Assembly: GCF_964355755.1 (NCBI RefSeq)
Contig: NC_092671.1
Coordinates: 20,956,001-21,020,000, forward strand
Direction of reading: 5' to 3'
DNA length: 64,000 bases
Source of the DNA: Antedon mediterranea
Taxonomy: Eukaryota; Animalia; Echinodermata
The notes below the pieces were generated by a model. The model was not told the origin of the DNA and did not search any database. It was given only the letters and a program-made list of their open reading frames with translations. Positions 6,654-42,643 of this stretch are shown here, piece after piece (within the stretch, counting starts at the first letter, position 1; each line of letters starts with the position of its first letter). Both the position numbers and the translations under genes were made by a program.

Positions 6654-7016
6654 TGCCGGGCCGCCAAAAAAAACAGTCTTTAGTCAACCGTAGCGAATGA
6701 TCGAGTCGTTGACGTTTTAACTAATTTCACCTATTCTTTGAACAGAACGATTTTTGTAAATCACGGTTTGGGTCAGTGAGTAAAACGCCGTTGATATCAA
6801 ATCCGCGACATGTGTAATTATGAAGTATCACCGCTTAAAGCTAAAAATCAAAACTAGACCACAATGTAACATATGAAAATTCACACAAAAAATTGCAAAA
6901 TATAAAAAACCATGAAATAAAAAAAAATGTAAATGAAAAAATGGGTAGGCCTATCGTGTTTCCGCTAAATATCAAATATTAACGAAAAATACACCCCGAA
7001 ATGTAAAGTTTGTGTC

Positions 7017-7231
7017 AGTAGAAGAAAAGGCACTTCAGTCCACCCTAGCATTTCATAATTACTTAATTAATTAATTAGATTTCCTGTTATTGTAATAATT
7101 AAATTATTCTTAATTAATGAAGGTCGTTCTTTTCCTGGTTTCGTAATAATTAAATTATTCTTAATTAATGAAGGTCTTTCTTTGTTTAGGGGCGTTATTT
7201 ATTAATATATTTATTTTATATTTAGATGGTG
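7017..7231 (+). repeat. Left TIR of the Polinton-like element
   Basis: Reverse complement of 17574-17843. Contains two copies (the second partial) of a 51-bp unit taataattaaattattcttaattaatgaaggtc... Confidence 0.95.
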
Positions 7232-8718
7232 ATATATTATATATAATTATATAATAGTAGACCTATAACCACCAAAACGGTTTATTATCTATAGGAAATC
7301 ATCAATTGTAACATGCGGTAAACAATACAAATTAGTTGCGCAAATTATTAAAAAATAGCACAATTGTTACAAATGAATTTAAGAAAATAAAGGTGTACAG
7401 ATTTTATTTCGAAAAAGTGTAGACCTACAAACATAATTTTACATAAAGTGTACAGAATAAATTAACAAAAAAAAAAGGTCACACATTAAACTAATTCTTA
7501 TAAAAGCGTACAGTGTACTTTGGTTATCAGTTATATCAACTTTAGTATTTTAAGTATTAGGGCCTATTTGTGGCAAACACACGGTCCCTTTTAATTGTGG
7601 GTAGAGGCCTTTTGCCGTTCGTAATTCAAACTGTTCGTAAAATCGAAGTTAATATTCTGAGATTAGGCCTATAGCCTATGATTGTTCATTAATAAACAGT
7701 ATATTATAACGATAAAGAAACGAATGTACGATACACCAATATAACAATACAATAACTGATTAACTGAAAACTTGAAGTCTACTGTATTCCTACAATCATT
7801 CAAGTAGACATTTTTTGCTGAGTGTATGATACTTTCTCCAAAGAGAATTCGAACGATGTGTTTTCGGACGTGTTTCTACGGTTATCAGAACGGGTCAATA
7901 ATGAAAAAAAAAAAAAAAAAAAAAGAAACAAACTGCCTACTAACTCCCAAAAAATCAATACCTATAAATAAGCTGAACCTAACCCACTAAATAATCTCTT
8001 CCATACATCAAAATCGACCGAAAATGATCTGAACATTGAAAAGTGGACACGATCGTCTGTTCTTCTTTTCTGTTTCCACGGCTTGGGACATCCCTGTTAG
8101 TGATGTAGCCATGCGGTCTACACACTTATGATGATCACATCGCATAACATGTTCAGGGAACTTATTTTTCAACTCTCTGATACAATGTTTAAATACAAGT
8201 AGACTGGAAACCATTTAGGAACAGGGGTTTCTAATAATAAAAGTTGTTTAAAACTTTAGTTATGGTCAAGGGGAATTGTTCAAGACTTGGAGTAAATGGT
8301 CAAGACCGAGGGCAAATGGTCAAGACCGGAAGAAAATTAAATTTCATCATTTTATAAGTTTATAGTCACTTATTGTGTTAAAATTCATTTATTATTAGAC
8401 CTGTATACGTATTCAATAACAAAAAATAACTTTCTTACATTAATAACATATCTTTAGTGGTTAAGGTAATATATTATTTCTCTGTATACTGACGTCACAA
8501 ATATAGATAAAGAGAGACTGTAACTAAATGTTTATTACTTATTAGGGTTACAGGGAGAGTTCCATGCAACATTAAAAGATCAATTAATGAGCCACCCAAC
8601 TTAATTTGAGAGCCCCCAATAAAACGGCTGACCAGAGGTAATTGATTTTTGATGATTTCCTATAGATAATAAATTGTTTTGGTGGTTATATACTATTATA
8701 TAATTGTATATATATCAC
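7229..8718. mobile_element. ~1.5 kb element bounded by ~75 bp imperfect inverted repeats, abutting the left TIR
   Basis: gtgatatat...tataaccaccaaaac...ttattatctataggaaatcatcaa (7229-7306) versus ttgatgatttcctatagataataa...gttttggtggttata...tatatcac (8649-8718). No clear TSD. Confidence 0.55.
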
Positions 8719-10609
8719 GTTTTAAGCAGCATCACACTCTTTGAAAAACAACACATTTTAACCATGAGGTGTAGATAAAATGCAAATAAAATGTGTTGGT
8801 TTTTAAAAGTGATGATAAGTACACTTTTTACAAAATATACGAACAACCCGGAGGACTGCAAACTGTACGAGTATAAACAAATAATATAACTCTGCTAGAG
8901 AAACACTATCGATATTAACAAACGTAATTATAAACAATGAGATGGTGTACACATCGAAAAACATAGGTTACTGTATAACAATGCAAGAAAAACTTGTTAT
9001 CCCTATTATCAATTGTTTTCTCGTGTCGCTATGTTGACTTTAAAAAAAATGGTTTTATCGTAGGTCGAGTGCAAATTGGCAAGGTTTAGTTGAATGGGAC
9101 TCCCACACACCTCTCCCACACTCATTCAGAGTACTATTCTTGTTTGTTATGAGTTGTCAAGAAAAAGTAAAGATATAAAGGATTTGTGAAAAGATATTAC
9201 ACCTGATGAGTTAAATAATGTGTTGGCTAAAATGATGAGTGACCATCAAAATACATATCAGTAGACTTGTTACAGTACGGTACGGTACTTGCAGTATGTG
9301 CATGTGTTGCGACGCAATGCGAAACTGCTTTACAATTGGAAAACGCTAAACGCGTCTCCTGTGATGGACAAAATTTAAAGTTACTATAAATTCATAACGA
9401 AAATGATTTGTTTGGTGTATTTCCTTTTATTTTGTCTATTATCTATATAATAATTAATATATATTTATTAATGTGTACGTGTTTCCTTAATTTGTCATTT
9501 CCAGAAACTTCTACGCAAATCAGTAGCTCAGTTTTGTGATTGGGTAATTGTTCTTGAATGATAAACCGTTTAAAATAGTGACGTCATGTTTTTCAGCCTA
9601 ATATTGTGCCTCGATGATTCCATCAATACCGCCAAAAATAAACCATTTACTGCGGAACCCATTTTATAAAATGATGCTTGATTAAGGGATTTTTTCATCA
9701 TCTACGGTAAATTAAAACATTCAGAGAACTATTGGTAACAATCAATAAGAGGATATTTACAAAGAACCGTTAAAATGTAGGCCTATGTCGTTATAAGATT
9801 TAGCCTGCAAAGCGAAGAACAAGGCCTGTAAAAATAAAAAATGCTGCAGATTCATAAAAAGAAAAAAAAAGTCTCGGTAGATAAACGTGTAGAAAAAAAG
9901 TTACAATATTTATAAAAACCAAAGTAGTTCTAAGAATATCTAATGGCAATAACCTGCACGTAAACAAATTTCAATTTTTGGCTCCGGTTGAAGGTCTTGT
10001 TTTCTGTTAAAATGTGTGAAGTGTCAAGAAATACAATTGGTAACCAAAACGTCTTTCTGTATTCGATAATTATGATTTCTCTGAGTTTTTTTTTTTGCAA
10101 TTATGATAAAAGTAATATAAAATAATACACAGATATCGGTCATTTCTCACAATTGAATTCATAATTTTATTTACAATACCACTTACAGTAAAAATATCGT
10201 AGATCTACATGGTCTTTATTGTAATAATATTAATCACACACATTTTTAGATAAATCATTGATACATGTACGAAAATATGTGCTATTATTAGTGTTATTAT
10301 AACGGTTTTTTTTGTTTTTGTTTTGTTTAATCTACCAGTCCGTTTCAAACGTTACAAGTACCTATTACTCTTGAAATTACGATTAAAACGCTTTAAAGAA
10401 AAACTTACACACTTATTAAAAACATAAAAAATTGTATTTAACAATGAGAAATACATTACAAGTTACTTTTAAGAAATTATTCGTAAAGTTAATCATTATC
10501 CACACAATGACAAACAATCACATGATTATTAACGATCAATGGAATTAGGCCTAGATCTAAGTGAATTAACTTCAATACAATAATAAAACCATTTGTAGGA
10601 ATAGCATCA

Positions 10610-11440
10610 CTACGTTACGTTCGTTCCCCTAACGGGGTTTTATTTCCACAATATTTAGGCCTCTGGCCCTTATATCTTACATACAAATCATACAATAATA
10701 TTTTCTAGTTGGGTTGCAAAATAATATTTTCTATTTTCGTAAGCTAAATAAACAAAATTTGCTAAATCTTGGACTACTCTAGTGTTGCACATTAAAAAAT
10801 AAAACTTATTTAAACAAGGGAACGTGTGATAAAAATTAGGAATATATAAGTTTCTGAGTTCGGAATAATATGGACAGACTAACATAAAATGAAATTCGTC
10901 TTCAATAGAATTCATATTGCATAATTTACATAAACGGTTTTGAAAGTGGGATTTTGTTCCATCTTCCCTTTTCTATTTCCAAATCTAACACTCCTAAACG
11001 AAATTTTGTGAATATATTTTTACGTTTCCAATCTTTTAAGTGTAACAAATGATAACTTATTTCAATTTTCGTTTTAAAATACTTAAAATATTTTAGTTTT
11101 GAATGTAAAGAAAATTGTTCAAAATATTTTTGTTTTTCTAAATCAATCAGTCGTAATTTAAATTCATTAATAAATAATTTCTTGTCTTCAACCATTTGAT
11201 TGTACCAAACATAACCAAAGCCGGTTGAACAAAGTAAATGTTTTACCTGACTAGCCCAGCAATATTCATTTCTGTTAATTTTTCTTAACTAAAAACTGTA
11301 ACATTTAAAAATAAATCTATTTTTATCCATGTCAATAATATGCAACCAAAAACGAATAATTGAAATTAAAAAATCGACATGCAAGGAGACTCTGCCTAAT
11401 TCTGTAGTTACGGCTGAGCTAGGGGCACAAAAATAATTCA
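10610..11440 (-). mobile_element. 5'-truncated non-LTR retrotransposon 3' end (RTE-X-like ORF2 C-terminus)
   Basis: TELGRVSL..., WASQVKHLLCSTGFGYVWYNQ, KFRLGVLDLEIEKGRW and the zinc knuckle CKLC...IEDEFHFMLVCPYY. Frameshift near 10930, and a short tandem-repeat tail near 10610-10625. Confidence 0.8.
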
Positions 11441-11540
11441 ACTGGTACTACTATACTAAATGAGAACAGATCTTGAACAGTTGATATTCTTGAGATCTGC
11501 AATCACTATTAAAGACTGTAATGTTTGCGTAACATTTCTC

Positions 11541-13325
11541 TCATCTTTTAATATCTCTAAACGTGAGATTTATTCTTGGTAGCTTGATGGATTGATTTTT
11601 AGGCAGTGAATGGTACCAGTACTCATTAGTGGGATAATTCATCATTAATAATGTACCGTGTTTAAGATCAACAGTTACTGGCTCAATGATTCTTTTGGGA
11701 CTCTTACCTCGCGCATCACCATGTCGAAATCTAAACATACGTGTTTGCCCCAATGATACAGAGGCGATTGGACTAAAGTGATTCATGTCTTTCTCATCAT
11801 CTTTGTGTTCGCCAATGTAATCACTTCCACTAGCATATCTATAGAGTAACGACAAAATACAATAGAAAATAAAATATTTTAAGATGAGACTAAAAAAAAC
11901 CAATTATCCATTAAAACAATCTTATCTAGCAAATTGCAGAAATCATCCAGTATGAATACTGATAGTGTTCCTTCGTTTTAGAGGTAAACGATGGAACCTT
12001 TTAATCAATAAATAAAATAAATAAATAAAATAATAAACAAGAATATTTACCGGTTGACCAAAACAAAATTGAAGTAATGTCCTGTAACCGATTTTAAAAG
12101 ATCGCGGAGATCTTTCAGGAATGGTGGCCACGGTAAAGCTGGTATTGTATTGCCTGAATATTTGTAAGTTAAGCCCGAATCGCCAAACGAAACCTGCAGA
12201 GGGGAAACCATACCAAAAAAAAAAGTCATTTATTATTTGGCGAGATGTAAATGAACACGCCCAAATAAAATTATTTACAGTAAAAGAGTAAATTACACCT
12301 ATAGCTAAACAGCTGTAAATAAAGAAAAACAAAGGAAACGATATACAAGTAATTAACAAGTCATTAATACAAAACCACGGATAAAAACACAATGGAACTA
12401 ACCTGTTTCCTAGGAATATTAAACCACTTTCCGTACACTTTCACCTTTGCAAGATCACCGGTAAAATAGTCAATCTCTTCCTCACATTTTTTAAACAATG
12501 TATCGGCTGCTCCTTTATCAAGAAGTTGAAGGTAATCACAGTCTAAATTTTTCCCTATTATCTTTTGCACCGATAACTTATCAGGGGGTAGCAATTGATG
12601 TTCTGAATTGAATAAACGTCCTCCATTATCGTTTTTGTCAACACCCCCTTCAACAGTAGCCGCATTATCACTACCAACCTCCTCAGTCATCTTTTGTATT
12701 TCACCGTGTTTTTCAATTATCTTGAACCACTGACTCTTTGGAAGGTTTACACCTTTTTTTTACCGGGTTTAAACTTGCCTCCTTCTTCAGACTTGTAATA
12801 GCGGCGAATACACACAAATTGTTCTTCTTTCCAGTTACTAACTACCACATGATTTATGTCCGAAAGTGGGATTCTTACTGCCTCCACCATGTTAATGTCT
12901 CTTAGTAAGTCTTCCAGTGACTGGAGAATTAAATTGATATTGTTAAAAAGTTTTTGCCACAGCAGAACGGGTAAATTAATACCTAGAGGTCCAGGTTTGA
13001 AGGCATCATATTCTTCCGTTTGGTAATACTCTCTGAGACAAACATAAACATCGTCACCCCATCGTTGGGCCACTACATGGCGTTTTTCAGACAAGAAAAT
13101 CCGATTCTTTGAAGTTATGGAAATCTTTGGTACATCATCGGTCATTACGGCAAAATACCAGGCGCTCATTCCTGAGGCTTTACTCAAACCGTTACACTCA
13201 TCTGTTTGACCGTTAAAAGATTTTCTAGGATCCAATATATTCGCTGATGTAGAAGCCATCGTTGGTATTTTTAAACTGCTACACTCGTCAGCTTGACCAT
13301 TAGAACTCCCCATAACTCTTTTCAT
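11541..13325 (-). CDS. ALKBH2: Spliced PC4-PC4-ALKBH2-like fusion gene (exons 13325-12403, 12193-12051, 11838-11541), one frameshift at the A8 run 12754-12761
   Basis: Exons join through GT-AG introns with matching phases (PRKQ|VSFGDSG phase 0; VN CG|A YAS phase 2). The product contains VYGKWFNIPRKQ, FNFVLVNRY, IGEHKDDE (HxD), YWYHSLP (H) and RINLTFR, the ALKBH2 motifs. Upstream are two PC4-like domains: VCLREYY...FKPGPLGINLPVLLWQKL and VCIRRYY...FKPGKK/GVNLPKSQWFKI. Confidence 0.88.
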
Positions 13326-13473
13326 AGTCCTAGGGGTTTCTCACCAATTGCTAATTTCGGAGTAGGTAAACAGTTGAAACTCATGTTTATAGACTGTAGA
13401 GAGTTACAGAAAGTGAAACGAATGATCGTTGACAACTCTGAACGATTACGTTTGAATCAGGTCCGATATATAC

Positions 13474-14072
13474 TGTAATATAATGTTGCGTTGTTGAGGT
13501 ACTAATGAAGACTCTGACTCGCTTGACTGTCGTAACACATATATTGTTTATTCAGTATAATACTTCAGTACAATATACAACTATAAGTATAGATAAGGAA
13601 CGGACGATCAATGATGCTGTCAGTGAGGTGTGAAGTGTGTAGGTCTGCTTCTGAAGAAGTGGCTGTGAGGTGTAGATGTTCTTCTGAAGAAGTGGCTGTG
13701 AGGTGTAGATGTTCTTCTGAAACTTGGGAGTATATTGGCTCAGTTCATTTGCATAATGTCATTACATCATTTATGGAGCTAATGATTGGTCCTAAGTTGG
13801 TCCAGGGGTGTTTAAGTGGGAGTGATTAACGGTATAATAAGGTATTTCTGTGATGGATGACACTGTCAAATCTGTACTTAAATAGTGTCAGTCACTCCTG
13901 GTTTAACGATGGGAAAAGTCACAAAATTAAGCTAAGTGTTTTCTTTAGGGATTCTATTATAAACTAAATGGTCATTAAAACATCTGGACTTTCTGGGTCA
14001 AGTTTGTGCACTTATTTGAATTCCGATACAAAGGTCGATTTCTTAAATATAAAAGTATATCGTTATATTACA
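13474..14072 (-). repeat. 3' LTR (599 bp)
   Basis: Nearly identical to 16224-16838; begins tgtaatataa and ends ttatattaca. Confidence 0.95.
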
Positions 14073-16223
14073 TCCCTCTGTTTCCCTTTTTTTTTCTAAT
14101 CTATTTAAAATATAAAAATGGTTATAATAGTGGCATGCAAAATTAAAGTTATATAAAAGAAAAAAAACATTATTATACATATAAGCAAAAATTGAGTTAG
14201 CCAAAACCATTGACTCTGAAGTGTAACCTTATCACTTTCACTCTCTCTCTTCTCTCTCTTAAAAAAAATTAAATTAAAAATGAATTTGGTATAAAATTCG
14301 CGTAAATCAAACAAAAATCGGTTAAAAATAAAAATACAAAACTTAAAAATAGTATGTTACATTGAACATACGTCAAATCGTGCGACAACTCATCGCATTC
14401 TAATGGCCTTCAAATATAAATCAATCAAATCAAAACATAAAATTCAAGAAACTGTGGCTGATTAGCCTAGAATCAAAATATCAAACTCAATCACTTAAAA
14501 CTTTAAAGAAACAAATGTGTGTGTCCCGTTGACACAAACTTATCCACAATATATCATTATCATCACAACTTTGTCGATTTAAGCATTTATATTCACAGGT
14601 AATTACGATTTCAATCAATCGACAAATTCGACTTTTGTACTCAATGTCAAAAAAATTACAATTAAAAGTACTAAGAAAATCTCCTGTTTTTGTATATCAA
14701 TTAAGTAATGCTTGAGATTAACGACTCAAAGGTTAAACAAAATATTTGTTACAAAATGATTGTCGTTCTTTTCAATATCTCAATATATCGATCATCAAAA
14801 TTCAAATTTAATCTTTATCAAAAAACTCGTTACAAAATCAATACTTAAACATAAATTCAATTTTCTTTTAACTGAAATCACATCATTACTAAACAAATCT
14901 CATTAAATACGTAGACTATGCTATTATTAATTTAGCAAATGTCGTAATTTAAAAATAATCTTGCAAAAAAAAATTAAATCAGTAATTCGTTGCATTATAC
15001 AAACGTTTTATGAATCGTTTTGGCGATCCACTTATCGGTATCTGTTTATCATTAATGATCTCTTTAATTAATTTATCTGTATCGTTATATCTGTCAATAT
15101 TCCACCAAAATTTGCGATCATTAGATTCGTGTTTTGTTTTATCGGTGTTGCGTTTGGCTGAAGTCGGTTTAGAATATGAAACTAAAACTTGGAAATGTCC
15201 TGCTTTAAATCTACCTCGGTTTAATGTCATATTTGAATCATTAGGTGCTGTCATAATTAAATTAGTTTGTTCCTTAATTTGTTCCTCTTTCATTTGGAAT
15301 GGGGCTGCTAATCCCATGTTATTCTCTACACAGTCAAAGTAAGGTTGTAAGTTAAGGGGGTCTATCTTAGTTGGATGTGTAAGGGTATCTGATTGCAATT
15401 GGGCTGGTGTCCTATCATGTTCGTCGATAAATTAAACATTGTTTTCGTCATTTACTACGTTAACGGTGTTCTGAATTTTCTCATTATTATTATTGGCGGG
15501 TTTATTAAACAATTATTTTAACAATTTAAAAAACAATTTTAGTGTGTATATATGTAAACTCTCACTTTTTCAATCAAGGTTACAAATCAAAAATCAAAAT
15601 GGTTTTGACTTACCCCAAATGCTTCGGATCCAATTAAAAATGAATTAAAGGAATGCAAAAAGTGTTCAAAAATGTTTAAATGTTCAAACAACAAATTAAA
15701 GAAATGTTAAAAGTGTTCATCAATGTTCAAATTTTCAAACAACGAATTCAAAAAAATGCGAAAGGTGTTCATCAATGTTCAAAAAAGTAAATGTTAAAAA
15801 AAACGATCGAAAAAAAAAACGGCGTGAAGTTGAAAGTCTCTAAACGAAACAGTTCTTGTCCGCTTGCTTCTGTTTTGATTCTTCTTGGGTCTTCCTCGAT
15901 TATCTTCTTTGTCTTTATCCAATGGTTATAATTTGATAAAATTTCTGCTTGTCTCGATCTCATTCAAATATAATTTCAGCTTGTCTTTTGTGTCTTCCTC
16001 GATTATCTTCTTTGTCTTCATCCAATGGTAATAATTTGATAAAATTTCTGCTTGTCTCGATCTCATTCAAATACAATTTCAGCTTGTCTTTTGAGTCAAA
16101 GTAAATTTCTGGTTTTCTCCTTTCAAACAAATATGGTTATTTTTGTCTTCGTCTTCGTGTCTTGTTAAGTGTTTATTTCTTGTTTTCTCACTCTGTTCCT
16201 TATGAAATTTGGGTCTTCCACCA

Positions 16224-16838
16224 TGTAATATAATGTTGCGTTGTTGAGGTACTAATGAAGACTCTGACTCGCTTGACTGTCGTAACACATATATTGTTTA
16301 TTCAGTATAATACTTCAGTACAATATACAACTATAAGTATAGATAGGGAACGGACGATCAATGATGCTGTCAGTGAGGTGTGAAGTGTGTAGGTCTGCTT
16401 CTGAAGAAGTGGCTGTGAGGTGTAGATGTTCTTCTGAAGAAGTGGCTGTGAGGTGTAGATGTTCTTCTGAAACTTGGGAGTATATTGGCTCAGTTCATTT
16501 GCATAATGTCATTACATCATTTATGGAGCTAATGATTGGTCCTAAGTTGGTCCAGGGGTGTTTAAGTGGGAGTGATTAACGGTATAATAAGGTATTTCTG
16601 TGATGGATGACACTGTCAAATCTGTACTTAAATAGTGTCAGTCACTCCTGGTTTAACGATGGGAAAAGTCACAAAATTAAGCTAAGTGTTTTCTTTAGGG
16701 ATTCTATTATAAACTAAATGGTCATTAAAACATCTGGACAAACTCTCCTCTGGACTTTCTGGGTCAAGTTTGTGCACTTATTTGAATTCCGATACAAAGG
16801 TCGATTTCTTAAATATAAAAGTATATCGTTATATTACA
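16224..16838 (-). repeat. 5' LTR (615 bp)
   Basis: By eye differs from the other LTR by one substitution (gataagg/gataggg) and a 16-bp indel near 16740. Confidence 0.95.
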
Positions 16839-16964
16839 ATACAGTTATTAATTGATTTTTTCCTGTCAATTGTTTCCCTGCAACATGTGCTAATTAAAGC
16901 ATTATTAACTTTTTGTTTGTTTGTTTCCCTTCAATCGTTTTCCGTGACACGTGCGAAACACAAT

Positions 16965-17566
16965 TTAAATTTCCTCGCACAACAGCTTAAAAATAGTCTC
17001 TGAATTAATCAGGGTATTTACAAGAAAATAAACGAAATGTCTATACCGAGGCAATGAATATTCTCCGTGCATATTTAGTTCGTTGTAAACGGTAACGGCT
17101 GAAACATACTTCATATCCAGAACCTCCCGATAAAAATAGTCAATCTGTTCTTCTAGAGATTTCATACAACAGAAATCATGATCTTTTTTACTGCTCCTGT
17201 CAAATTCACAACCATAACAAGCCGCTTTACTTAACAACCAACACTGGGCTAACACTTGAGCAGCAAACAATTGTTTAATCAAACGCTCCATTTTCAACAA
17301 AAATTCTCTCTCTACCTCGTCTACGTACGTAAATATACAACTTGTAGGCCTGTTACTCCTCTCGATTCCTTCATCTATACCGGCGGGGATAACCTCTTCG
17401 GCCTCCATGTAACGATCATCTATATCACTGCCTGGAACAACAGTGTATAGAAACACCTGGCGGAAATAATAATTAAAATTGACCATCAAAAATAATAACA
17501 AGGACAGAACGGAAACCCGAAATAATTAGATTAATTAACCTCCTGCAAGGACGATTTATAATCCAT
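16965..17566 (-). CDS. Small Cys/His-motif protein of the Polinton-like element (predicted exons 17566-17540 and 17456-16965)
   Basis: Open frame with CYGCEFDRSSKKDHDFCC. A predicted micro-exon MDYKSSLQE|gttaat...ccag|VFLY (83-bp phase-0 intron) supplies an ATG just inside the right TIR. Confidence 0.65.
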
Positions 17567-17573
17567 TGCATAA

Positions 17574-17843
17574 CACCATCTAAATATAAAATAAATATAT
17601 TAATAAATAACGCCCCTAAACAAAGAAAGACCTTCATTAATTAAGAATAATTTAATTATTACGAAACCAGGAAAAGAACGAACTTCATTAATTAAGAATA
17701 ATTTAATTATTATGAAACCAGGAAAAGAATGACCTTCATTAATTAAGAATAATTTAATTATTACAATAACAGGAAATCTAATTAATTAATTAATTAAGTA
17801 ATTATGAAATGCTAGGGTGGACTGAAGTACCTTTTCTTCTACT
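17574..17843 (-). repeat. Right TIR of the Polinton-like element
   Basis: Reverse complement of the left TIR, with one extra 51-bp unit and one extra TAAT unit. Confidence 0.95.
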
Positions 17844-19270
17844 TGTGTCCGAGCGCATCATCTAATTTCGACTACTGTTTGTGTTGATTTTTTCATTAGA
17901 ATGTCTGCCGACTGATTGACAAACTTCAACGTGCATGTTGTCACTTTCAGAAGAGCACCCCAGATTAATATTCACACAGCACAAAGTCCCATATCCAATA
18001 TTGCATTCATGTTGTAGCTTAGTCTACAGATATTTCAAAGTAAAGGAATACTTCGTTTATTACAAAATCAATGGTCGTAAATAGTTATATTCTTGACAAT
18101 TTGTTGTTTTTTAAATAATTTGTCAGAGGCCGGGAAGATTTTTATTATACTCAATCATGCTATGCGAATTGTTATTAAGGCAGACAAACCGCGGAGCACG
18201 GGTTACTTCTAGACCACAATTTAATTACAAAAGTAACAAGTGATAGGTAACAAATCTCCCACACAAAACAAATTGCGAAAAAAACCCAGTGAAATAAAAT
18301 GTAAATGAATAAACTTAATCATTCCTTTCTCCGTTTCCGCAGCATGTGTTTTTCATTCGATTTTTGTCCATTTTTGTATGTATCACATAATTAATACACC
18401 ACTAAAAACACCCAAAATAAAATAGTTTGGGATTGGCATTTTATACTTTTATGTGTTTGCGCGCATCATTCACACAGCACAATTTGTCTTTAGCGTCATT
18501 CTAATCGTTACGTCAGAAATTTGCATATTCACTTTTGAGGAAACGAATCTAGTTTTAACCTCGCTATAAAAGAAAAAAGTTATGCGAGCTTCTGTGTTTG
18601 GGGTTCACAGATTTAAACGTCCCCCTTTCCACCGCACATAATGAGGCAATAACATCAAAGCATCTGATGCGTGGTACCCCCAAGGCTGTGTGTGAGAGAG
18701 CCTTACCGTGCTATAGGCAAGGGAGCACACCATCATTATTGTTGGCCTCTTTCCGATCTCGTAAATTATATGTTTGGCGCCCTCAATTTTAAGAACACCT
18801 AAGTTATGTCAGAAAATTAGGAACAAATAAATAGAAATGTGATGCCGATGCCTGGCCTAGCAAGTGTATTCTCTCTATTTATTTAAATACATATGCAATA
18901 TTGTAATGAATAATGTTCACAATTTGTTGTGAATTTTTTTTTCGGGGTTGGTGGTGTTTGGTGACATTTGCAATTACCATTTTCGCACCTCAGATATTGT
19001 TGGAAATTATATATTAGTTTTACACTCAAAACTAAAAATATAAATTTGTACCGACATATGGGATAACATTTTTGGCCCACTCACTTTGTGTCAGTTAGGC
19101 TTTTACAGACGTTTTTTAATTAGGGCCACATTTTGGGGGGATTTGGCATTATTTTTCCAAATCAGGCATTATTTGAGACAGGCTACGGCATAATTTAAAT
19201 TTTATTGCTGGCAACACTGTAGGCTAGTCTCTCTGTACTGTATAACCAAAGAATATATTCTTTGGTATAC

Positions 19271-22200
19271 CAAAGATCTTATATTATACTAAAGATGTGA
19301 CACTACCCGTGTTTACGCGTAACACTTTAGAAGCGTCAAATTATAGTGCGCCCCCTCGCTTAAACAAGTAACTAACTTTTGCGTGACGATCGCAGTATTC
19401 TTTAGAAAATGGGATTGAGGAGTCGCGCCAAAGTTTGTATGGTTAAGAAACAATGAATGAAAAGAGAAAAAGTGGAGGGATGTACTGTGCTGCAATTAAT
19501 TGTAAAAGCAAGTCAAAGGCCAACCCAGAACTTAAGTTTTACAATTTTCCCAAAGATAAGAACAGGTAAATTTATGTAATTAAATAAGTACGGTAGCCTA
19601 CATCTTAACATATGCTATGTAGGCCTAGGCCTAGGGACTAATCTTACTTTACTGTATTCAATTTATACATATATTAATAAACTAGGCTAGGTAGGCCTAT
19701 TATTAATAATTATTATTTAAACGTATGAAATGATTATTATTATCATTATTAGGCTACTACTAGTACATTAGTTTTATAACAGTGAAATTACACTAATTTC
19801 ACTGTTCCCTGGTTATATTACTTATCCTTTAAAATTTAATACCCTTAACAAACAATTTTTGAAACTTTCAATTCAAGAAAAATCTATTGACCAAATATAT
19901 ATCATTACAATTGTTGGCAGCGCATATAAGTAAAAATTTGGTCGAAAGACTACGAGAAGCCCAATTGGCATGTCGCTGTAGGCCTAGTCCCTCTTTTTAC
20001 ATTATAGGCCTACAAATAATAATAATAATACTTAATATAAACAAATTGTGATCTTGATTATTTCATGCTTTCCGTCTCATGGTAAATATTTGCTTTCTGT
20101 CTCATGGTTATTTTATTTCGTTTAATTTAACTAGCCGTTACATACATTACAGTATATTAACGCATGAAATGATTATTATTATCATTATTAGGTTAGGACA
20201 TTAGTTATAATAACAGTGAAATTGCACTATTTGTATTGTTCCCTGGTTATATTACTTATCCGTTGAGTAGCCCTAACAAACAATTTTTAATTGAATCTTA
20301 TACTTAATATTTATGAAATTCAACCGTTAGTTAGTTAGTGGTTTTAGGTTAGGCCTAAGTACTTGATTTTAGGCCCTAACCAATTTAAAAATCAATTAGC
20401 ATGCACGTAGACGTCCTATAATTACGTAAACGTTAATTATGATAAAGCAAAAACTCACTAGACAATTATTAATTTACAGGTGTGCAAAATGGGCCCAGAA
20501 CACACGACGCGCGGATTTGAGAACGAAACCAAGTTCCTATTTACATCGTAATTGCCACTTGTGCAATATTCATTTCGAAGAATCTCAAATATTCGATTCA
20601 TGCAATGCCAGATGCATACAGAATACAAACATCTACAAACGGGCAGCTACACCTACGTCTATTCACGTCCAGTTCTGGAAAGATTGTTGCGAATGGATAT
20701 CTTCGTGGACGGTGAGTGACGGCTCGACGAAACAGATTGAATGTATCGATGGCTGGCTACTGACGATCAACGCGATGATCGGGTTGCATGACGAATTAAT
20801 CAACAATCACGCCTTTAAGTTTATACTCACAGGCAGACTAAATCAAGATTGCCTTGAGAACTTTTCTATTGTCAGATCGCTATAACCCGATGGTAGATGA
20901 ATTTAGAGCCTCCCTGAAGGAAGTTATGTGCAACAGGATGTTAATTCCGTTAGGGAATTCGAATTGCCTAGAAGACACTGATCGACAGCTAAATGGAATT
21001 GATGCAATAATGATGGCCCAATCATCATCATCATCAACGCCACAATCGCATCATGTTGTCGATCATGAAGACAACGATGCCACCACTGACGACGACTGCT
21101 GCTGCTGCTTAGAAGACTTTGAGATGACTCAGCTAAATACTTTAGTATATGTAGCCGGTTACGTCAAGAAAGTAAGTGTAAATACACAACTGCGATATCA
21201 GTGCGATGCGAGAAACCAATCGAAAACTGGAAGACCCAAAGCAGTTCTAACACATTTTAAGTCTTATATGCCCATCAACCAGTACAACGACTTCGGGGGA
21301 TTAATTATGCCTACTGACAATGTAGTTAATGTCCTATCTATCTGTGAAAAGATTTTTGTTTCTAACTTTAACAAATACTTACATACATCAAACATCAGCA
21401 GAAAAATAAAGTAAAAAATCGCTACCATGTTACATAGATTTGGTATGAAGTTGAATCTTTGTTCACCAGCAATTGAAACATTGCTAATTGAAACGTACGT
21501 AAACCTACGCATATTCTATGCTGTTAAATTCTTCAACAGAGACATAATCAGTGATAAGAAGAAGAGTAAAAAATTAATTAAAGTATCACATTTATGAGGT
21601 ATGGTAAAGTTGTAGGAGGTCTGTACGCGCCCCGGTCTGTGCATTATCGGCTAGAAATGATGATCATTACGACGGTCTGGTATGATGATTGAATAATTGT
21701 AAATATGATGATTTTATTTCAATGTTTCTACATTTTTTATAATTCCTCTGGGTGGCCCGTGCATCATTTCGCAATAGTTATTGAGTTAATTTTAAACCGA
21801 GACTACTATAACATAACTAATTGTTATCTCAGGTTTTAAATAAATTATACTAATAAATGAATGTCATGGCGAATGATGGGTACATGTATGCCTAGTATGA
21901 ATTGTCTCAGAATTGACTATCATAATCTGTTTCATATCATGCCTGTAGGCTTAAGCCCATGATTGTTTATAAATATATTTCGAAAAATTACTGCAATAAA
22001 ATAGTCGAAGTAGTGTTTTTAAAAAGTGACTTCTTGTTCTTTTTTAATTGTTTATAACACATTATTTGACTAATATAATTTCCTAATCTGCACTGTTTTG
22101 CTGCTGGATGAAAAAGAAGAACACATCAAGAACAAAAACGGAATACGATGCGCTTAGTGTTAATACCAGAGGGACCGAATCGCATAAATAAGTAGTACTA

Positions 22201-30546: not shown

Positions 30547-31282
30547 TAATAAATAAATAATTTTGTTTGACAAATCCAAAAGAAATTACTCGCATTCTTT
30601 AGCTTTCGCCATCTTGGCTGATGGCTTGATCACAAGTGATCCGGTCCACTACTACTTCCTGGAAATCTGTTGTTATTGTTTCTAGGTGACGTCATACTTT
30701 TTCGTAGCAGTGATGTGTATACGTGATCGAGATATACAGCCCCTTCGTCGCGGTTGATTGCGTTAGTCCCCCTCTTTCTGATTTGGATTGCCTCTCTGAT
30801 TCTACGCTTGAATGGGTTAGAGTCTCTGTCAAGAATTTTTGCCCCATCCCAATCGATGATATGGTTTTCTTGCGCTGCATGGTCTGTGATGGCGGATTTG
30901 TGGATTTCGGATGTTGATTCCTTTCTTGTTGCCCGAGTGTATTTACGATCGGTGACCGTTTCAGTGTCTTTTTGGTGTTCTTTCAGTCTTACTCCAAATT
31001 GACGACCTGTTTCCCCAATATACGATTTCTTGCAACTTTTGCAAGGGATGTCGTAAACAATGTCACTTGTTTGGGTGATGTCCTTCTTGTCTTTGGGGTG
31101 GACTAAAATGCTTTTAAGAGTGTTCGTTGGACGCATGGCATGTCACCTAGAAACAATAACAACAGATTTCCAGGAAGTAGTAGTGGACCGGATCACTTGT
31201 GATCAAGCCATCAGCCAAGATGGCGAAAGCTAAAGAATGTGAGTAATTTCTTTTGGATTTGTCAAACAAAATTATTTATTTA
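30547..31282 (-). mobile_element. Penelope-like retroelement 3' fragment with inverted terminal duplication
   Basis: ORF 30630-31136 encodes a GIY-YIG endonuclease (VYDIPCKSC..SYIGETGR..RLKEH, SAITDH, RRIREAI, INRDEG). 30551-30690 is the inverted copy of 31142-31282. Confidence 0.93.
31196..31235 (+). ncRNA. Minimal type I hammerhead ribozyme, G3-C8 variant (second copy on minus strand at ~30597-30636)
   Basis: CUU GUGAUCA A GCCAUC agccaa GAUGGC GAAA GCUA AAG: core, 6-bp stem II, palindromic AGCU stem III and a 3-bp stem I. Confidence 0.6.
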
Positions 31283-31558: not shown

Positions 31559-34500
31559 ACTAGAATTTAATTCGTCACTTTGACGAATTATAGGTGATCA
31601 TTTTTATCATTTTTATAAAATTAACATTTTTTAAACATGCATGTACGTTAACATACGATCGTTAAAAGTTGATGTACGCCATCCTATGACATGATTGCAT
31701 ATACACTTATAGTGCTGAGTTGTACCTATGTGTCATACAATATGTACAGTAGTGTAGCATAGGTGAAATTACGGGACTCGTATCGTGTTCTAATTTTTTG
31801 GTATGATGGAATTTTCAAAATAAACTCGAAGATGACAATTTCGAAAGATAATGAATTGAGCAAATAAATATAAGGATTGGAAGAAAATTTGACACGTAGA
31901 AGCGCAATGCGCGGTCTTTGAAATTTGTATAACTTTGACTAAATAAATTTAAAAACTACTTTTTAACTTCAACTGGCCATATGATAACATCACAACATCC
32001 GATAGGCTTAATTTTAATATGAATTCATATCTACATTTCATCAGCTTTCATAATAAGTTATAATCTTCAAGGTCACCTTTAATTCTGAAGAGCTATAAGA
32101 TATTCAAATGTATGGTGTAGCTGAAATTACACGACCTAGGTTATTCAAGTTTTTACGCGTGATGACGTCATCAAAATAAAAATGTTGACAACTCATTAGA
32201 AGAATAATTAATTGAGCAAGCACATACTAAAAGTTGTGCGAAAATCGGGCTCAAATAACGGAGATGCGCTCTATTGAATGTGATAACCCACACAAAAAGA
32301 AAAAAATTCCTAATTTTTTAATTCAAGTGGCCATTTGATGACGTCATACCATTTTGTACGTCTAATGTGTATATACATTTGTATCTACAACTTATTGGCT
32401 TCCATAATAAGTTAAAAAAATTGGGGGTCATCTGCCATTCTGAAGAGTTATATTCATTTTAAAAAGTCCTTATTTTTTACCATTTTTAGCACTTTTGTAC
32501 AATTAGTGTGCGCATTTTGTCATTTTTAACGTGCTCGTATAGCGTTATTTTAAGTCGGAATGGACTCAAAATTGGTGAATGTACTAAGGATTGTGAGTAG
32601 AATGTGATTTATACATCAAATTTGATTTTTTACGCATTTTAAGAATCGTGCGCACAAAAACACATTTTTGCGCAGTAATTTTTTGAAACGCGCAAATGGC
32701 CTAATTCATGCTCTAAATTGATCAAAACCTAATTTTGCGCGTTTTAAATTTTTAACGCGCGATTTCACGTGCATGACCTTGAAACGCGCAACTTTTTATT
32801 TGCTAATATTTTTACCCTTGACCTGAAGTTTACCTGTAGTGAATTTCATTAATATGTCATAATGAATTATGGAGATATGATTGATAATGTGATTTCACAA
32901 AATGGCGTATAAATGACGTCACGGATGAGTGATCACGCTGGAAAGCTGATTAGGATTAAGTTATATTATTTGAAAGATATTTTGGTAATCATTGACATTA
33001 AACTTTTTGAGATAATTGTTACACAAAATAGTGTACAGAAACAATAAAAAGACTAGACATGTAACTCGTCACTTTGACGAGTTAGTTATCCGCACGACAA
33101 ACGCCACGTGCACGTCATATGTTAGAATATTGCACACAGAAAAAGATTATGACCTGAACTGAAGAATATGATATGTTATTATTGCTGAATTTCTATTATT
33201 TTGATTCATATAATATAGTATACACAGTATAATCTGTATCCATATCACATACAGTGTAGAATAGCTGAAATTACGGGACCCGCTATTTATTGCAATTTTT
33301 AACATGTTGACGGTTTTAAAATGAAACGCGCAGGTAGCAATTTCGGAAGGAAGTTATCTCAGCAACAACATATTAACGTGTAGAAGAAATTTGAATACGT
33401 GAAATATTGATGCGCGCTTTTTTAAATGTAATGCATTATGACGTAAAAGATGAAAATACGACTTTTTTTATTTAACTGGTCATATGATGACGTCACAACA
33501 TCTGATTGGCAAAATGTTTACATAAATTCGTATCTACAATCCAATAGCTTCCAGAAAACGTTTTAATCATGATTATCACGTTTTATTCTGACGACCTATA
33601 ACAGATTGAAATTTACTGTAAAGACGAAAATAAGTAACCCACGTTATTTACATTTTTAGACATGATGACGTCATAAAAATTAAAATATTTTTAACTCATA
33701 CGAAATATAGTTGATTGACCTAGATAATATAAAAATCGGGGTAAAAATGGAAAACAGATAATTGGAGATGCGCTCTATTAAATGTCATGCGCTATGATAA
33801 AAGATACAAAAATCCTATATTTTATATTCGCATGGCCATACGGTGACGTCACAATGTTCGGTTAGCCATATTAATGCATGATCCAAAATCTACAACTCAT
33901 CAACTTTCAGAATATGCAAAAAAAATTACTTTCACCGTTTAGTTTAGGAACTACGACTGTTTAAAAAAGGGCACAATTTTGACAAATTTTGACGATTTTT
34001 TGAACTTTTTCATAAAAAATGCACGTAAATTATCCAATTCAACGTGCCCGTATGACGTAATTTTAAGTCGAAATTGTTCAAAAGTTGGTAAAATTACTAG
34101 AAAAGGCTGGAAAAACATAAATCACGCGAAAAAAAATTGTTTTCAACGCTACGTGCGTACCGCGCGCGTAAAAATTTGAGCGCACGTGGGAATTTTTTAC
34201 ATGCTCTAAATGACATGAAACGCGTAGAAAGTTGATTAGATATTGATTTTTCGCATTTTGAAATTTTAAACGCGCGTGCACGCGTAACTTCGTGTGAAAC
34301 ATGCCAATTTTTTTTCACATTCAGTTAGCGCAAGATATCAATTAAACTTTTGTTAAGTTTCAATTTAAATTGCTATATGGTTTTCAATCTATGTTAAATA
34401 GGCGAAACTCGTAAAAATGCGCGTAAGTCATGTTGCGCAACTCTGACGTCATTCAAAAATAGGAGGTGCACAACTTCACCTGAATGATCTCATGCTGACA

Positions 34501-37500
34501 AAGTTATAACATGTTATGTTTACACGTTTTTGAGATACGCGAGACACAAAAATAGAGGAGAAAGAAAGAAAAAAAAAAAAAAAAAGTAACAGGACAGTTA
34601 CAAGGAGTTATCCGCTGAGTGCGGATAACTAACTAGACATGTAACTCGTCACTTTGATGAGTTTGGTTATCCGCCGCGCAAGTGGTGCAACATTAACATT
34701 AAGGGGATAGGTTGAGGACAAAAGGAAGTGTTCACGTTGGCATTATGACCTGAACTGAAGAATATGATATGTTATTCGCTGAATTTTATTATTTTAATTC
34801 ATATATAGTATACACAGTATAATCTGTATCCATATCACATACAGTGTAGAATAGGTGAAATTAAGGGACCCGCTATTTATTGCAATTTTTAACATGTTGA
34901 CGGTTTTAAAATGAAACGCGAAGGTAGCAATTCCGAAAGGAAATTATCTCAGCAACAACGTATTAGCGTGTAGAAGAAATTTGAATACGTGAAATATTGA
35001 TGCGCGCTCTTTTAAATGTAATGAATTATGACGCAAAAGATGAAAATACGACCTTTTTTATTTAACTGGCCATATGATGACGTCACAACATCGATTGGCA
35101 ACATTTTTACATAATTTCGTATCTACAATCCAATAGCTTCCAGAAAAAGTTTTAATCGTGATTATCACATTTTATTCTTACGAGCTATAACAGATTAAAA
35201 TTTACTGTAAAGATGAAATTAATGCCACACGTGATTAAAATTTTTAGGCATGATGACGTCAAAAAAATTAAAATATTTTTAACTCATGCGAAAGATAGTT
35301 GATTGACCTAGACAATATCAAAATCGGGGTAAAAATGGAAAACGGATAAGTGGAGATGCGCTCTATTCAATGTGATGAGCTATGACGAAAGATACAAAAA
35401 TCCTAAATTTTATATTCGCGTGGCCATACGATGACGTCACAATGTCCGGTTAGCCATATTAATACCTGATCCGATATCTACAACTCATCTACCTCCAGAA
35501 TATGCCATCCACAAAAAGTTGACCGTCTAGTTTAGAAATTACACTGTTTAAAAAAAGGCATATTTTAAACGAATTTTTTAACCTTTTCACAAAAAACGCG
35601 CGCAAATTGTCCAATTCGACGTGCTCGTATGACGTATCTTCAAGTCGAAATTGTTTAAAATTTGGCAAAATTACTAGGAAAGGCTGGAAAAACATAAATC
35701 ACGCGAAAAAAATACGTTTTCAATGCTACGTGCGCACCGCACACGTAAAAATGTTCGCACGCGTGGGAATTTTTGAAATGCTTAAAACGACATGAAACGC
35801 GTAGAAAGTTGATTATAAATTAATTTTGCGCATTTTGAAATTTTAAATGCGCATGCGCGCGTAACTTTGTGTAAAACACGCAATTGTTTTTCAACAGAAA
35901 GTTAGCGCATGATATAAATTAAACTTTTGCAAAGTTTCACTTTAAAATGTTATTTGGTTTTCGACATATGTTAAATACGAGAAAATCGTTAAATCGCGCG
36001 TACGTCACGTTGCGCAATTGTAAACATCATGAAAAGCTTCGCTTGACGACGTTACATAAATGTCAAAATGTTAACATAGTTAACAAAATGTTATGTTTGC
36101 AAGTTTTAGAGAAAAGCATTACACAAAAATCATACAGAAAGAAAGAAGATTAAGAAAAAGACTAGACATGTAACTCGTCACTTTGACGAGTTTGGTTATC
36201 CGCCGCGCAAGTGGTGCAACATTAACATTAAGGGGATAGGTTGAGGACAAAAGGAAGTGTTTACGTTGGCATTATGACCTGAACTGAAGAATATGATATG
36301 TTGTTATTGCTGAATTTTATTATTTAAATTCATATAGTATACACAGTATAATCTGTATCCATATCACATACAGTGTAGAATAGGTGAAATTACGGGGCCC
36401 GCTATTTATTGCAATTTTTTAACATGTTGACGGTTTTAAAATGAAACGCGAAGGTAGCAATTCCGAAAGGAAATTATCTCAGCAACAACGTATTAGCGTG
36501 TAGAAGAAATTTGAATACGTGAAATATTGATGCGCGCTCTTTTAAATGTAATGAATTATGACGCAAAAGATGAAAATACGACCTTTTTTATTTAACTGGC
36601 CATATGATGACGTCACAACATCCGATTGGCAACATTTTTACATAATTTCGTATCTACAATCCAATAGCTTCCAGAAAAAGTTTTAATCGTGATTATCACA
36701 TTTTATTCTTACGAGCTATAACAGATTAAAATTTACTGTAAAGATGAAATTAATGCCACACGTGATTTAAATTTTTAGGCATGATGACGTCAAAAAAATT
36801 AAAATATTTTTAACTCATGCGAAAGACAGTTGATTGACCTAGACAATATCAAAATCGGGGTTAAAATGGAAAACGGATAAGTGGAGATGCGCTCTATTCA
36901 ATGTGATGAGCTATGACGAAAGATACAAAAATCCTAAATTTTATGTTCGCGTGGCCATACGATGACGTCACAATGTCCGGTTAGCCATATTAATACCTGA
37001 TCCGATATCTAAAACTCATCTACTTCCAGAATATGTCATCCACAAAAATTTGACCGTCTAGTTTAGAAATTACGACTGTTTAAAAAAAGGCATATTTTAA
37101 ACGAATTTTTTAACCTTTTCATAAAAAACGCGCGCAAATTGTCCAATTGGACGTGCTCGTATGACGTATCTTTAAGTCGAAATTGTTTAAAATTTGGTAA
37201 AATTACTAGAAAAGGCTTGAAAAACATAAATCACGCGAAAAAAATACGTTTTCAATGCTACGTGCGCACCGCACACGTAAAAATGTGCGCACGCGTGGGA
37301 ATTTTTTACATGCTTAAAACGAGATGAAACGCGTAGAAAGTTGATTATAAATTAATTTTGCGCATTTTGAAATTTTAAATGCGCGTGCGCGCGTAACTTT
37401 GTGTAAAACACGCAATTTTTTTTCAACAGACAGTTAGCGCATGATATAAATTAAACTTTTGCAAAGTTTCATTTTAAAATGTTATTTGGTTTTCGACATA

Positions 37501-40500: not shown

Positions 40501-42643
40501 TTTCATAAATATGTGATAATGAATTATGGATATATGATTGATAATGTGATTTCACAAAATGGCGTATACGTGACGTCACGGGTGAGAGATCACGCTGAAA
40601 AGCTTATTATGGCTAAGTTAAAGTATTTGAAAGACATTGTGAAATTTTTGTGATCATTGCTATTCAACTTTTTGAGATATTTGATGAACAAAAAGTGTAC
40701 AGAAAGAAGAATAATAACACTAGACATGAAACTCGTCACTTTGACGAGTTAGTTATCCGCTCGACAAACGCCACGTGCACGTCATACGTTACAATATTGC
40801 GCACAGAAAAATATTAAGGCATTATGACCTGAACTGAAGAATATGATATGTTGTTATTTCTGAATTCTGTTATTTTGTGTCATATAGTATACACAGTACA
40901 ATCTGTATACATATCACAAACAGTGTAAAATAGGTGAAATTACGGGACCCGTATTTTATTGTAATTTTTAACATCTTGACGGTTTCAAAATGAAATGCAA
41001 AAGTAGAAATTTCAGAATGAAATTATCTCAGCAACAACATATTAACGTGTAGAAGAAATTTGAATACGTGAAATATTGATGCGCGCTCTTTTAAATGTAA
41101 TGAAATATAATGCAAAAGATGAAAATACGACTTTTTTTATTTAACTGGCCATATGATGACGTCACGACATTCAATTGGCACAATTTACACATGATTTTGT
41201 ATCTACAATACAATAGCTTCCTGAAAACGTTTTAATCGTGATTATCACATTTTATTCTTACGAGGTATAACAGATTAAAATTTACTGTAAAGATGAAATT
41301 AATGACCAACGTAATTTAAATTTTTAGGCATGATGACGTTAAAAAAATTAAAAAAATTTTAATTCATGCAAAAGATAGTTGATTGACCTAGAATATATTA
41401 AAATCGGGGTGAAAATAGACAACGAATAAGTGGAGATGCGCTCTATTAAATGTGATGAGCTATGACGAAAGAGACAAAAATCCTATATTTTATATTCGCG
41501 TGGCCATACGATGACGTCACAATGTCCGGTTACCCATATTAATGCATGATCCGATATCTACAACTCATCAACTTCCAGAATATGTAATTAAAAAAAAGTT
41601 CTCCATGTAGTTTAGAATCTATGACTGTTTAAAAATAGGCATAATTTTGACAAATTTTTGAACTTTTTCACCAAAAACGCGTGCAAATTATGTAATTCGA
41701 CGTGCTCGTATGACGTAATTTTAAGTCGAAATTGTTTAAAAGTTGGTAACATTACTAGAAAAGGCTGAAAAAACATAAATCACGCGAAAAAAATATGTTT
41801 TTAACGCTACGTGTGCACCGCGTGCGTAAAAATTTTCGCGCGCGTGGGAATTTTTGACATGCTCAAAATGACATGAAACGCATAGAAAGTTGATTAGAAG
41901 TTGATTTTTCGCATCCTAAAATTTTAAACGCACGTACGCGCGTAACTTTTTGTGAAACATGCTATTTTTAATCCATAGAAAGTTTGCGCTTGATATGACT
42001 TAAATTTTCACAAAGTGTCAAAACAAAATTATGTTTGGTTTTTAGTCTATGATCAATCATTGAAATTCATAAAATCACGCGTACGTCACGTTGCGCAACT
42101 CTGACGTCATTCAAAAATAGGAGGTGCACAAGTTCACGTAAATGTCGATGTGTTGACAAAGTTACGATATGTTCTGTTTACACGTTTTAGAGAAACGCGA
42201 CGCACAAAAATGACAGAAAGAAAGAAGTATAATACAGAAAAAAAAAAAAATTTGATGAAACAGGACGATTACAAGGAGTTATCCGCTACTAAGCGGATAA
42301 CTAAATAAAGATTTTGTACAATAACAATAGGTGATCATTTTATTCTAAATGATCACCTAATAATACAGAAAAAAAAAAAAAAAAAAAAGATGATGAAACA
42401 GGACAGTTACAAGGAGTTATCCGCCATAGTGCGGATAACTAAAAAAAGATGATGATGATTTCGTACAATCACAAGAGGTTATCCTGCAACTTCGTTGCGG
42501 ATAACCAATGATGATGATTTCGTACAATCACAAGAGGTTATCCTGCAACTTCGTTGCGGATAACCAAAAAAAAAAAGAAAAATAATAATAAAGATTTCAT
42601 ACAATTACAATAGGTGATCATTTTATTCTAAATTATCACCTAA
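31559..42643 (-). mobile_element. Nested stack of seven ~1.55 kb Helentron-associated (HINE-like) non-autonomous elements
   Basis: Left ends (actag + hairpin tcgtcactttgacga + subTIR) at 31559, 33052, 34632, 36161, 37686, 39197 and 40719. Matching hairpin/subTIR right ends at 34631, 42304, 42360, 42442, 42508, 42567 and 42643. No TSDs; insertion sites are A-runs. Confidence 0.88.

Follow-up and report, generated by a model that had tools for sequence, protein, structure and literature searches.

A PC4–PC4–ALKBH2 gene inside a mobile element

The window, by which we mean the whole stretch of 64,000 nucleotides of Antedon mediterranea DNA that was analysed, carries a gene on its minus strand (13325 to 11541) in which two PC4 repeats are followed by an AlkB-family dioxygenase domain (PF13532; Table 1). 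Pfam PF02229 matched the first part of this gene in two stretches (E 1.9e-17; 62.9 bits, with a cut-off of 25) and PF13532 matched downstream, in agreement with the original prediction, made from the letters alone, of two tandem PC4 domains joined to an ALKBH2-like enzyme. Continuous relatives of the gene reach about 82 bits for PC4. Removing both introns leaves an open frame of 263 codons downstream of the A8 run, with its stop at 11541. We also found that the RefSeq model P0009 equals the spliced AlkB part of the window letter for letter from the methionine at 12690. An independent annotation therefore uses the same introns, and the proposed structure of three exons with phase-compatible GT–AG introns stands. 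The HxD...H...RxxxxxR signature is intact, as had been read: all five catalytic residues, namely the HxD...H iron triad and the R...R residues for 2-oxoglutarate, are in place.

The second PC4 repeat had been taken to be completed across the A8 run. The frame does break there, but related models read through this position in one frame, which rules out programmed frameshifting and makes the break a defect of the window copy. The proposed gene start at 13325 was not upheld, as relatives start at about 13384 and a second break lies near 13335. The gene is broken twice in the window. This copy is decayed and non-autonomous, a passenger from which nothing more than the AlkB part, started at the internal methionine, could be made.

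Table 1. Features of the fusion gene and its carrier element, in order of position in the window
Feature	Positions	Strand	Remarks
Left target-site duplication, TGTGTC	7011-7016		same six letters at 17844-17849
Left terminal inverted repeat	7017-7235	+	219 bp; starts AGTAG; two 51-bp subrepeats
Nested LINE-like fragment	~10608-11425	-	missing from other copies; loose contig ends at 11426 in 4 of 4 runs
Exon 3, catalytic half of ALKBH2 with stop codon	11541-11838	-	H 11807, D 11801, H 11612, R 11576, R 11558
Intron 2	11839-12050	-	212 nt; GT-AG; phase 2; same splice in RefSeq model P0009
Exon 2, middle part of ALKBH2	12051-12193	-	profile match and spliced frame
Intron 1	12194-12402	-	209 nt; GT-AG; phase 0; acceptor position common to host ALKBH2
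Exon 1, N-terminal part of ALKBH2	12403-12618	-	core starts at 12576
Approximate fusion point, PC4-gene tail to host-like ALKBH2	12612-12625	-	unfused crinoid PC4 proteins align to here, then diverge
PC4 repeat 2	12676-12875	-	frame broken at A8 run 12754-12761 (T run on + strand)
PC4 repeat 1	12906-13103	-	Pfam PF02229
N-terminal region	13104-13384	-	disorder predicted for relatives; gene begins at ~13384; the second break in the frame is near 13335
Nested non-autonomous LTR retroelement	13474-16838	-	TG..CA LTRs 13474-14072 and 16224-16838; ATAC duplication; primer site; purine tract
Orphan ORF with CYGC motif	16965-17408	-	co-oriented neighbour of the fusion gene if the LTR insert is discounted
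Right terminal inverted repeat	17570-17843	-	274 bp; ends CTACT; three 51-bp subrepeats
Right target-site duplication, TGTGTC	17844-17849		matches left copy at 7011-7016

A Polinton-like carrier with nested insertions

As predicted, the gene lies between the terminal inverted repeats of a mobile element, which spans 7017–17843 (10.8 kb), has the ends AGTAG ... CTACT and is flanked by TGTGTC on both sides. The two arms are 95–98% complementary in ungapped pieces and differ in length by one 51-bp subrepeat, and the chance that the six flanking letters match is about 5e-4. AG...CT ends are a hallmark of Polintons, and the element has such ends on long inverted repeats as well as a 6-bp duplication. 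Duplications of this size and long inverted repeats are typical of Polintons (PMC3014272, excerpt). Scans of the element's ORFs of at least 45 codons (9 in one scan, 30 in another) gave no Pfam match to the Polinton core genes for a protein-primed PolB or a retroviral-like integrase, and no packaging ATPase, cysteine protease or capsid family. Because neither PolB nor integrase was matched in these ORFs, we file the element as a non-autonomous Polinton-like derivative and not as a member of the Polintons. The original prediction of a Polinton-like carrier is supported by the ends, the duplication and the PC4 gene; the scanned ORFs added no core gene to it. The terminus pattern had no match in metagenome contigs.

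One alternative is that the carrier is another kind of inverted-repeat transposon that makes 6-bp duplications, to which the argument from single-strand replication would not apply. The absence of a core gene from the scanned ORFs would fit such an element, as would inverted repeats of 219 and 274 bp, which fall below the 584 bp of a lizard Polinton (PMC3014272, excerpt). We consider this very unlikely, as the 6-bp duplication, the AG...CT ends and a tandem PC4 gene with its best viral match in an adintovirus all agree with a Polinton.

Later insertions make up about 4.2 of the 10.8 kb of the element, leaving about 6.6 kb once they are removed. The two LTRs of the nested retroelement are near-identical. 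This young insert shares the strand of the fusion gene and sits 90 bp upstream of where the gene starts, so that transcription of the copy could be either driven or disrupted by its 3′ LTR. An ORF within the insert (14979–15431) has no Pfam family. At the LINE-like piece, Pfam zf-RVT matched weakly (E 0.043), and the tested motif matched 10589–10607 with one mismatch. Contigs of other copies skip this piece and join the downstream flank of the gene to sequence near 10600, so that some, if not all, of the element interior is common to these copies.

The ORF with the CYGC motif adjoins the right inverted repeat and is possibly a second Polinton accessory gene. It had no Pfam family; a set of 18 candidates yielded no homolog, viral contigs yielded no related locus, and phmmer gave no match among 138 PC4 relatives. 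Its Atlas scores were at most 0.85. Compared with the CxGC segment that follows the tandem PC4 in P0219, it gave a weak match (E 0.009), in a single comparison picked after the motif had been seen. At the other end of the element, sequence beside the left inverted repeat (7238–7305) recurs inverted at 8649–8712, about 1.4 kb inside, which suggests that part of the interior has been inverted or that a small element is nested there.

Repetitive DNA also occurs elsewhere in the window. At 19450–21600 we observed THAP-domain (P-element-like) transposase fragments (Pfam THAP E 2.3e-5 at 20430–20882). A tandem array of about seven 1.5-kb units, 60–99% alike, occupies approximately 31750–42100, with a further copy 19 kb away at 60000–61300. 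A second long inverted pair (46150–47555 and 58420–59810; more than 1 kb, 90–97% alike in pieces, 11–13 kb apart) is present, and a CENP-B-type HTH fragment at 47439–47798 adjoins its first segment. Two GIY-YIG endonuclease ORFs (30550–31282 and 61602–62834), the first of this pair or the second being flanked by 141-bp inverted repeats and the other lying close to a reverse transcriptase fragment, are presumably Penelope-like.

A family of fusion genes in Antedon mediterranea

Searching the PC4 frame among longer proteins gave 5 matches from 385 candidates, all of them from A. mediterranea. The clusters of these matches comprise 17 models, some of them probably isoforms of one locus, on contigs of seven different lengths, and RefSeq labels the proteins as uncharacterized or ALKBH2-like. 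Two PC4 stretches and PF13532 occur in one chain in 9 of the 17 models, and at least one PC4 stretch in 10. The fusion is therefore independent of reading through the break in the window, and the continuous natural gene models speak against the possibility, raised with the original prediction, that all copies keep PC4 and AlkB as separate genes. In the profile searches and gene models examined, none of the three outcomes named as refuting that prediction was seen. Three models (P0006, P0009 and P0010) start at an internal methionine and contain AlkB alone, and many models of the family are truncated. Terminal inverted repeats were established for the window copy alone among these copies.

Four public runs with two organism labels each held 62 to 339 matching contigs, across all identity classes, and listed contigs bridged the fusion point in three of the four (none recorded as RNA). 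One contig, from run X5, passes from exon 2 directly into exon 1 (19 letters with one mismatch; the run is not recorded as RNA), which shows that the animal splices intron 1 out of at least one ALKBH2, be it that of the host or that of the element. Outside Antedon we found no PC4–AlkB fusion: a PC4 search of 1.84 billion representatives gave 140 matches, and PF13532 was present in 0 of the 138 that were not from Antedon. Similarly, in a whole-protein search both domains occurred together in Antedon only, among the 120 listed of 213 matches with precomputed Pfam assignments.

The AlkB part is related to crinoid ALKBH2

Exon 3 matched human ALKBH2 chains with E values of 8e-34 to 3e-33 and ALKBH3 with 1e-13, which places the predicted domain nearer ALKBH2 than ALKBH3 or any other AlkB protein. 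Consistent with this, the predicted structure of the AlkB domain of P0011, a full-length relative, superposed on human ALKBH2 with a TM score of 0.97 and an rmsd of 1.1 at 53% identity. Of the 79 columns conserved in 112 non-crinoid ALKBH2 relatives, 72 are kept in the AlkB domain of the fusion, and only one of the seven departures falls at a column where all four crinoid host rows keep the conserved residue. The basic R-K-K loop of most of the 112 relatives, whose role we take to be duplex binding, is absent from both the element copies and the crinoid host genes. All of the crinoid stand-alone rows (P0018, P0279 and P0280) were without this loop, and Antedon has two such paralogs. The finger residue is tyrosine in 13 of 13 element models, phenylalanine in crinoid hosts and tyrosine in 16 of the 112 others.

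A separate host ALKBH2 had been named as a check on the prediction, and stand-alone genes were found in both Antedon and Anneissia. Core identity to the element copies was 83% for Antedon P0018, 81% for Antedon P0279 and 73% for Anneissia. In the tree, the element copies form one clade (97/98) within a crinoid clade (100/98), among the crinoid stand-alone ALKBH2 genes. An alternative topology that grouped the crinoid with other deuterostome genes, and the element copies with three protostome rows, was rejected (p-AU 3.7e-7), and the trees rule out a viral or non-deuterostome source of the AlkB part. P0018 appeared as sister of the element copies in a first tree (90/71), a placement that lost its support once the full host isoform was added, leaving no settled order within the crinoid clade. 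These phylogenies show a host (crinoid) ancestry for the putative dioxygenase.

The comparison of intron positions proposed earlier points the same way. A stretch of 12 residues that ends exactly at the acceptor of intron 1 distinguishes P0279 from P0020, both of them isoforms of the host gene. Since this acceptor position is shared with the host gene, capture was likely at the DNA level. Retroposition of ALKBH2 is unlikely, because the introns are kept and one position is common to the host.

The PC4 part and its predicted fold

The closest relatives of the PC4 part include five unfused Anneissia genes on five contigs and three unnamed proteins. They share N-terminal and post-repeat motifs with the fusion up to about 12618 and then diverge. 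The PC4 part is a member of a crinoid gene family with dispersed copies. A tree of the individual repeats, built on few columns, supported only a 13-row group of crinoid-type repeats and two unnamed rows (96/92). The PC4 protein had no related loci in viral contigs and the PC4 alignment none in metagenome contigs; Atlas feature matches to mollusc and Preplasmiviricota PC4 clusters scored below 0.9 and serve as leads only. Among the PC4-search matches we also noted other tandem-PC4 fusions, with a Viral_Rep domain in P0248 and with Z-alpha domains in P0200, P0236 and P0240.

We then considered the predicted structure of the tandem. The model of the relative P0003 has a pLDDT of 90–98 per ten-residue block over residues 101–250 and gives each repeat four strands and a kinked helix, with the two repeats paired as a dimer-like unit. 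Each modelled repeat fits PC4/MoSub1 (TM score by target of about 0.9), and the best match of the modelled pair was to Pur-alpha repeats I–II (Z 11.7, rmsd 3.5, 130 aligned residues), an example of the single-chain PC4-like arrangement (reviewed in PMC7549692, excerpt). The tandem is thus predicted to form a single-chain, Pur-alpha-like pseudo-dimer on a flexible linker, in keeping with the pseudo-dimer proposed originally. The full-length model of P0011 has a low-confidence N terminus and linker, and predicts no fixed orientation between the domains (pTM 0.51). The best viral structure match of the tandem was MOSUB of a lancelet adintovirus (E 1.8e-7 over 177 columns), which the adintovirus map places beside the ITR (PMC8502044 supplement, excerpt).

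The residues through which PC4 contacts single-stranded DNA are R70, F77, R86, W/Y89, R100 and K101 (PMC4350104, excerpt). In an alignment read by eye, both repeats keep the aromatic residues at 77 and 89 as well as R86; repeat 1 has proline and leucine at the positions of R100 and K101, and repeat 2 has isoleucine at R70. Binding of single-stranded DNA by the tandem is plausible, and it may be weaker or asymmetric because neither repeat retains the full set of basic contacts to the DNA backbone.

Constraint on the two parts

To compare constraint across the AlkB domain, we kept those columns at which two of three hosts agreed and 90 relatives gave coverage, and dropped the rest. Columns at which all 12 tested element models depart from the crinoid host state number 2 of the 73 conserved and 20 of the 116 variable ones (Fisher p 0.002). 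Between the subfamilies represented by P0011 and P0017, identity is 198/204 in AlkB, 130/151 in PC4 and 42/75 in the linker and N terminus, the last two differing with p 2e-6. Substitutions among contigs numbered 8 synonymous and 4 non-synonymous in the AlkB core, and 1 synonymous and 6 non-synonymous in PC4; these counts come from a selected few rows, 36 of the 40 listed from a total of 248, with four upstream rows left out. The pattern in AlkB shows what appears to be purifying selection on this part, and the PC4 ratio of 6 to 1 counts against constraint on PC4. In one contig from run X3, both flanking exons are 90–95% identical, whereas 163 letters that do not align stand in place of intron 1. 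Long selection on the exons would fit this pattern, although the contig could be a host paralog.

These data bear on whether the element is a mere vehicle, in which extra ALKBH2 copies raise the repair capacity of the host and PC4 is a leftover of the capture site. That the constraint is strongest on the AlkB part would suit this idea, as would the three models with AlkB alone and the two further stand-alone ALKBH2 paralogs of Antedon. We judge it unlikely, since PC4 is better conserved between subfamilies than the linker and N terminus, and since a dispersed family with many truncated models, and with young nested inserts in the window copy, looks mobile rather than like a set of fixed host genes.

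The fusion could also be a neutral chimera. A non-autonomous element would then have picked up ALKBH2 DNA, in the manner of Pack-MULEs or Helitrons, and hitchhiking would have spread it; the high identity of the AlkB parts would reflect recency or recombination between subfamilies. The window copy is twice broken and has no core genes, and the restriction of the fusion to Antedon-labelled proteins, among those searched, implies that it is young. By contrast, the changes shared on the stem of the element copies avoid conserved columns, the join is in frame, the whole catalytic domain is kept, and the unalignable intron of the run-X3 contig, if not from a host paralog, is in keeping with long selection on exons. 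A neutral origin of this kind therefore seems to us quite improbable.

Proposed origin and function

We propose that a host ALKBH2 was captured onto the PC4 gene for a single-stranded-DNA-binding accessory protein of a Polinton, and that the product likely repairs 1-methyladenine (1mA) and 3-methylcytosine (3mC) on single-stranded element DNA; we put the chances of this reading at about even. The PC4 accessory gene of a crinoid Polinton would have captured the host ALKBH2 gene, introns included. The single-chain PC4 unit would then keep the enzyme bound to element DNA that is single-stranded or melted. In the replication model for Polintons, strand displacement proceeds through single strands. 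Polintons encode a protein-primed polymerase (PMC6431247, excerpt), and one review treats their replication mechanism as not settled (PMC9406493, excerpt). If replication exposes single strands, 1mA and 3mC there would block the polymerase, and such strands would have no intact partner strand at hand. The PC4 tether would point a normally duplex-preferring enzyme at these strands, and the fusion is predicted to remove both lesions from element DNA. 3mC stalls replication, ALKB2 repairs it, and DNMTs make it as a by-product (PMC9246332, excerpt).

The original prediction also suggested that the fusion counters host methylation. This is the weaker half of its functional proposal, because the established substrate of ALKBH2 is 3mC damage and not the 5mC mark. 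A corresponding alternative is anti-silencing or methylation tolerance, in which the fusion clears DNMT-made 3mC from the integrated element, or oxidizes 5mC at melted promoters held by PC4. ALKBH2 shows weak oxidation of 5mC in vitro. Moreover, ALKB2 co-evolves with DNMT1/3, whose by-product is 3mC (PMC9246332, excerpt), and PC4 has a higher affinity for melted DNA than for plain single-stranded DNA (PMC7549692, excerpt). The active site, however, is that of a conventional ALKBH2, as judged by the conserved columns kept, and the host has its own ALKBH2 genes for integrated DNA, so that we think anti-silencing improbable.

Returning to repair on element DNA, we suggest more tentatively a wider reading that is possible but doubtful: that a Polinton-type virus of feather stars recently took a host ALKBH2 and joined it to its own PC4 module, gaining a dedicated demethylase that would clear replication-blocking methyl lesions from single-stranded or melted viral DNA and may also blunt the methylation defence of the host. 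If true, this would be a first example, among the endogenous DNA viruses of animals, of a methyl eraser built for the purpose.

Relation to known systems

The AlkB part of the fusion has the fold, the HxD...H...R...R residues and most of the conserved columns of human and other animal ALKBH2, and its intron 1 position is shared with the Antedon host gene. Unlike these proteins, it is joined to two PC4 repeats, is present in many copies and lies within a mobile element. The PC4 tandem resembles, across its whole length, the PC4/Sub1-like accessory protein MOSUB of the lancelet adintovirus (A0A5H3CIS2), but is only 21% identical to it, and MOSUB, with 203 residues, has no room for an AlkB domain. 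The term 'alkb' had no occurrence in the part of the adintovirus supplement (PMC8502044) that was covered. Each repeat of the fusion fits PC4/Sub1, and the tandem fits the intramolecular pair of Pur-alpha I–II. Whereas PC4 is an intermolecular dimer, the fusion has both halves in one chain, each missing some basic contacts, with an enzyme after them.

The 6-bp duplication and long inverted repeats are like those of Polintons or Mavericks that carry cargo or nested transposons (PMC3014272, excerpt), and Polinton cargo genes and nested elements have been reported (bioRxiv 10.1101/2025.02.07.637071, excerpt). By contrast with such elements, the window copy is without core genes, and its cargo, a repair gene of the host, has kept its introns and is joined in frame to a gene of the element. 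Viral AlkB proteins offer a further likeness, a mobile genome with its own alkylation-repair dioxygenase, as in plant RNA viruses, whose replicases carry AlkB domains. Clusters of PF13532 occur in Marseille-, Mimi- and Phycodnaviridae (PMC10598087, excerpt). Unlike the fusion, these viral genes were not taken recently, introns included, from an animal ALKBH2, and we found no report of a PC4 fusion among them. In PMC11662393, whose excerpt names Polinton/Maverick and PC4, PC4 is a table label.

The architecture had been thought undescribed, and no description of it was found in the literature searched, with subscription papers, Repbase reports and bioRxiv supplements lying outside that search. 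Both domains and the capture of cargo by Polintons were already known; the PC4–PC4–ALKBH2 join is apparently undescribed and apparently selected, and we offer its function and viral context as proposals drawn from sequence data. The fusion is young and datable, as each component is still in view: the donor genes of the host, the PC4 relatives that stand unfused in another crinoid, the junction itself and the introns that were retained. It is predicted to be a natural ALKBH2 tethered to single-stranded DNA, whose substrate preference could be compared with that of the host enzyme. If active, it would allow two questions to be tested: whether Polintons replicate through single strands so exposed that alkylation repair is worthwhile, and whether mobile elements are under selection from the 3mC burden that comes with DNA methylation by the host.
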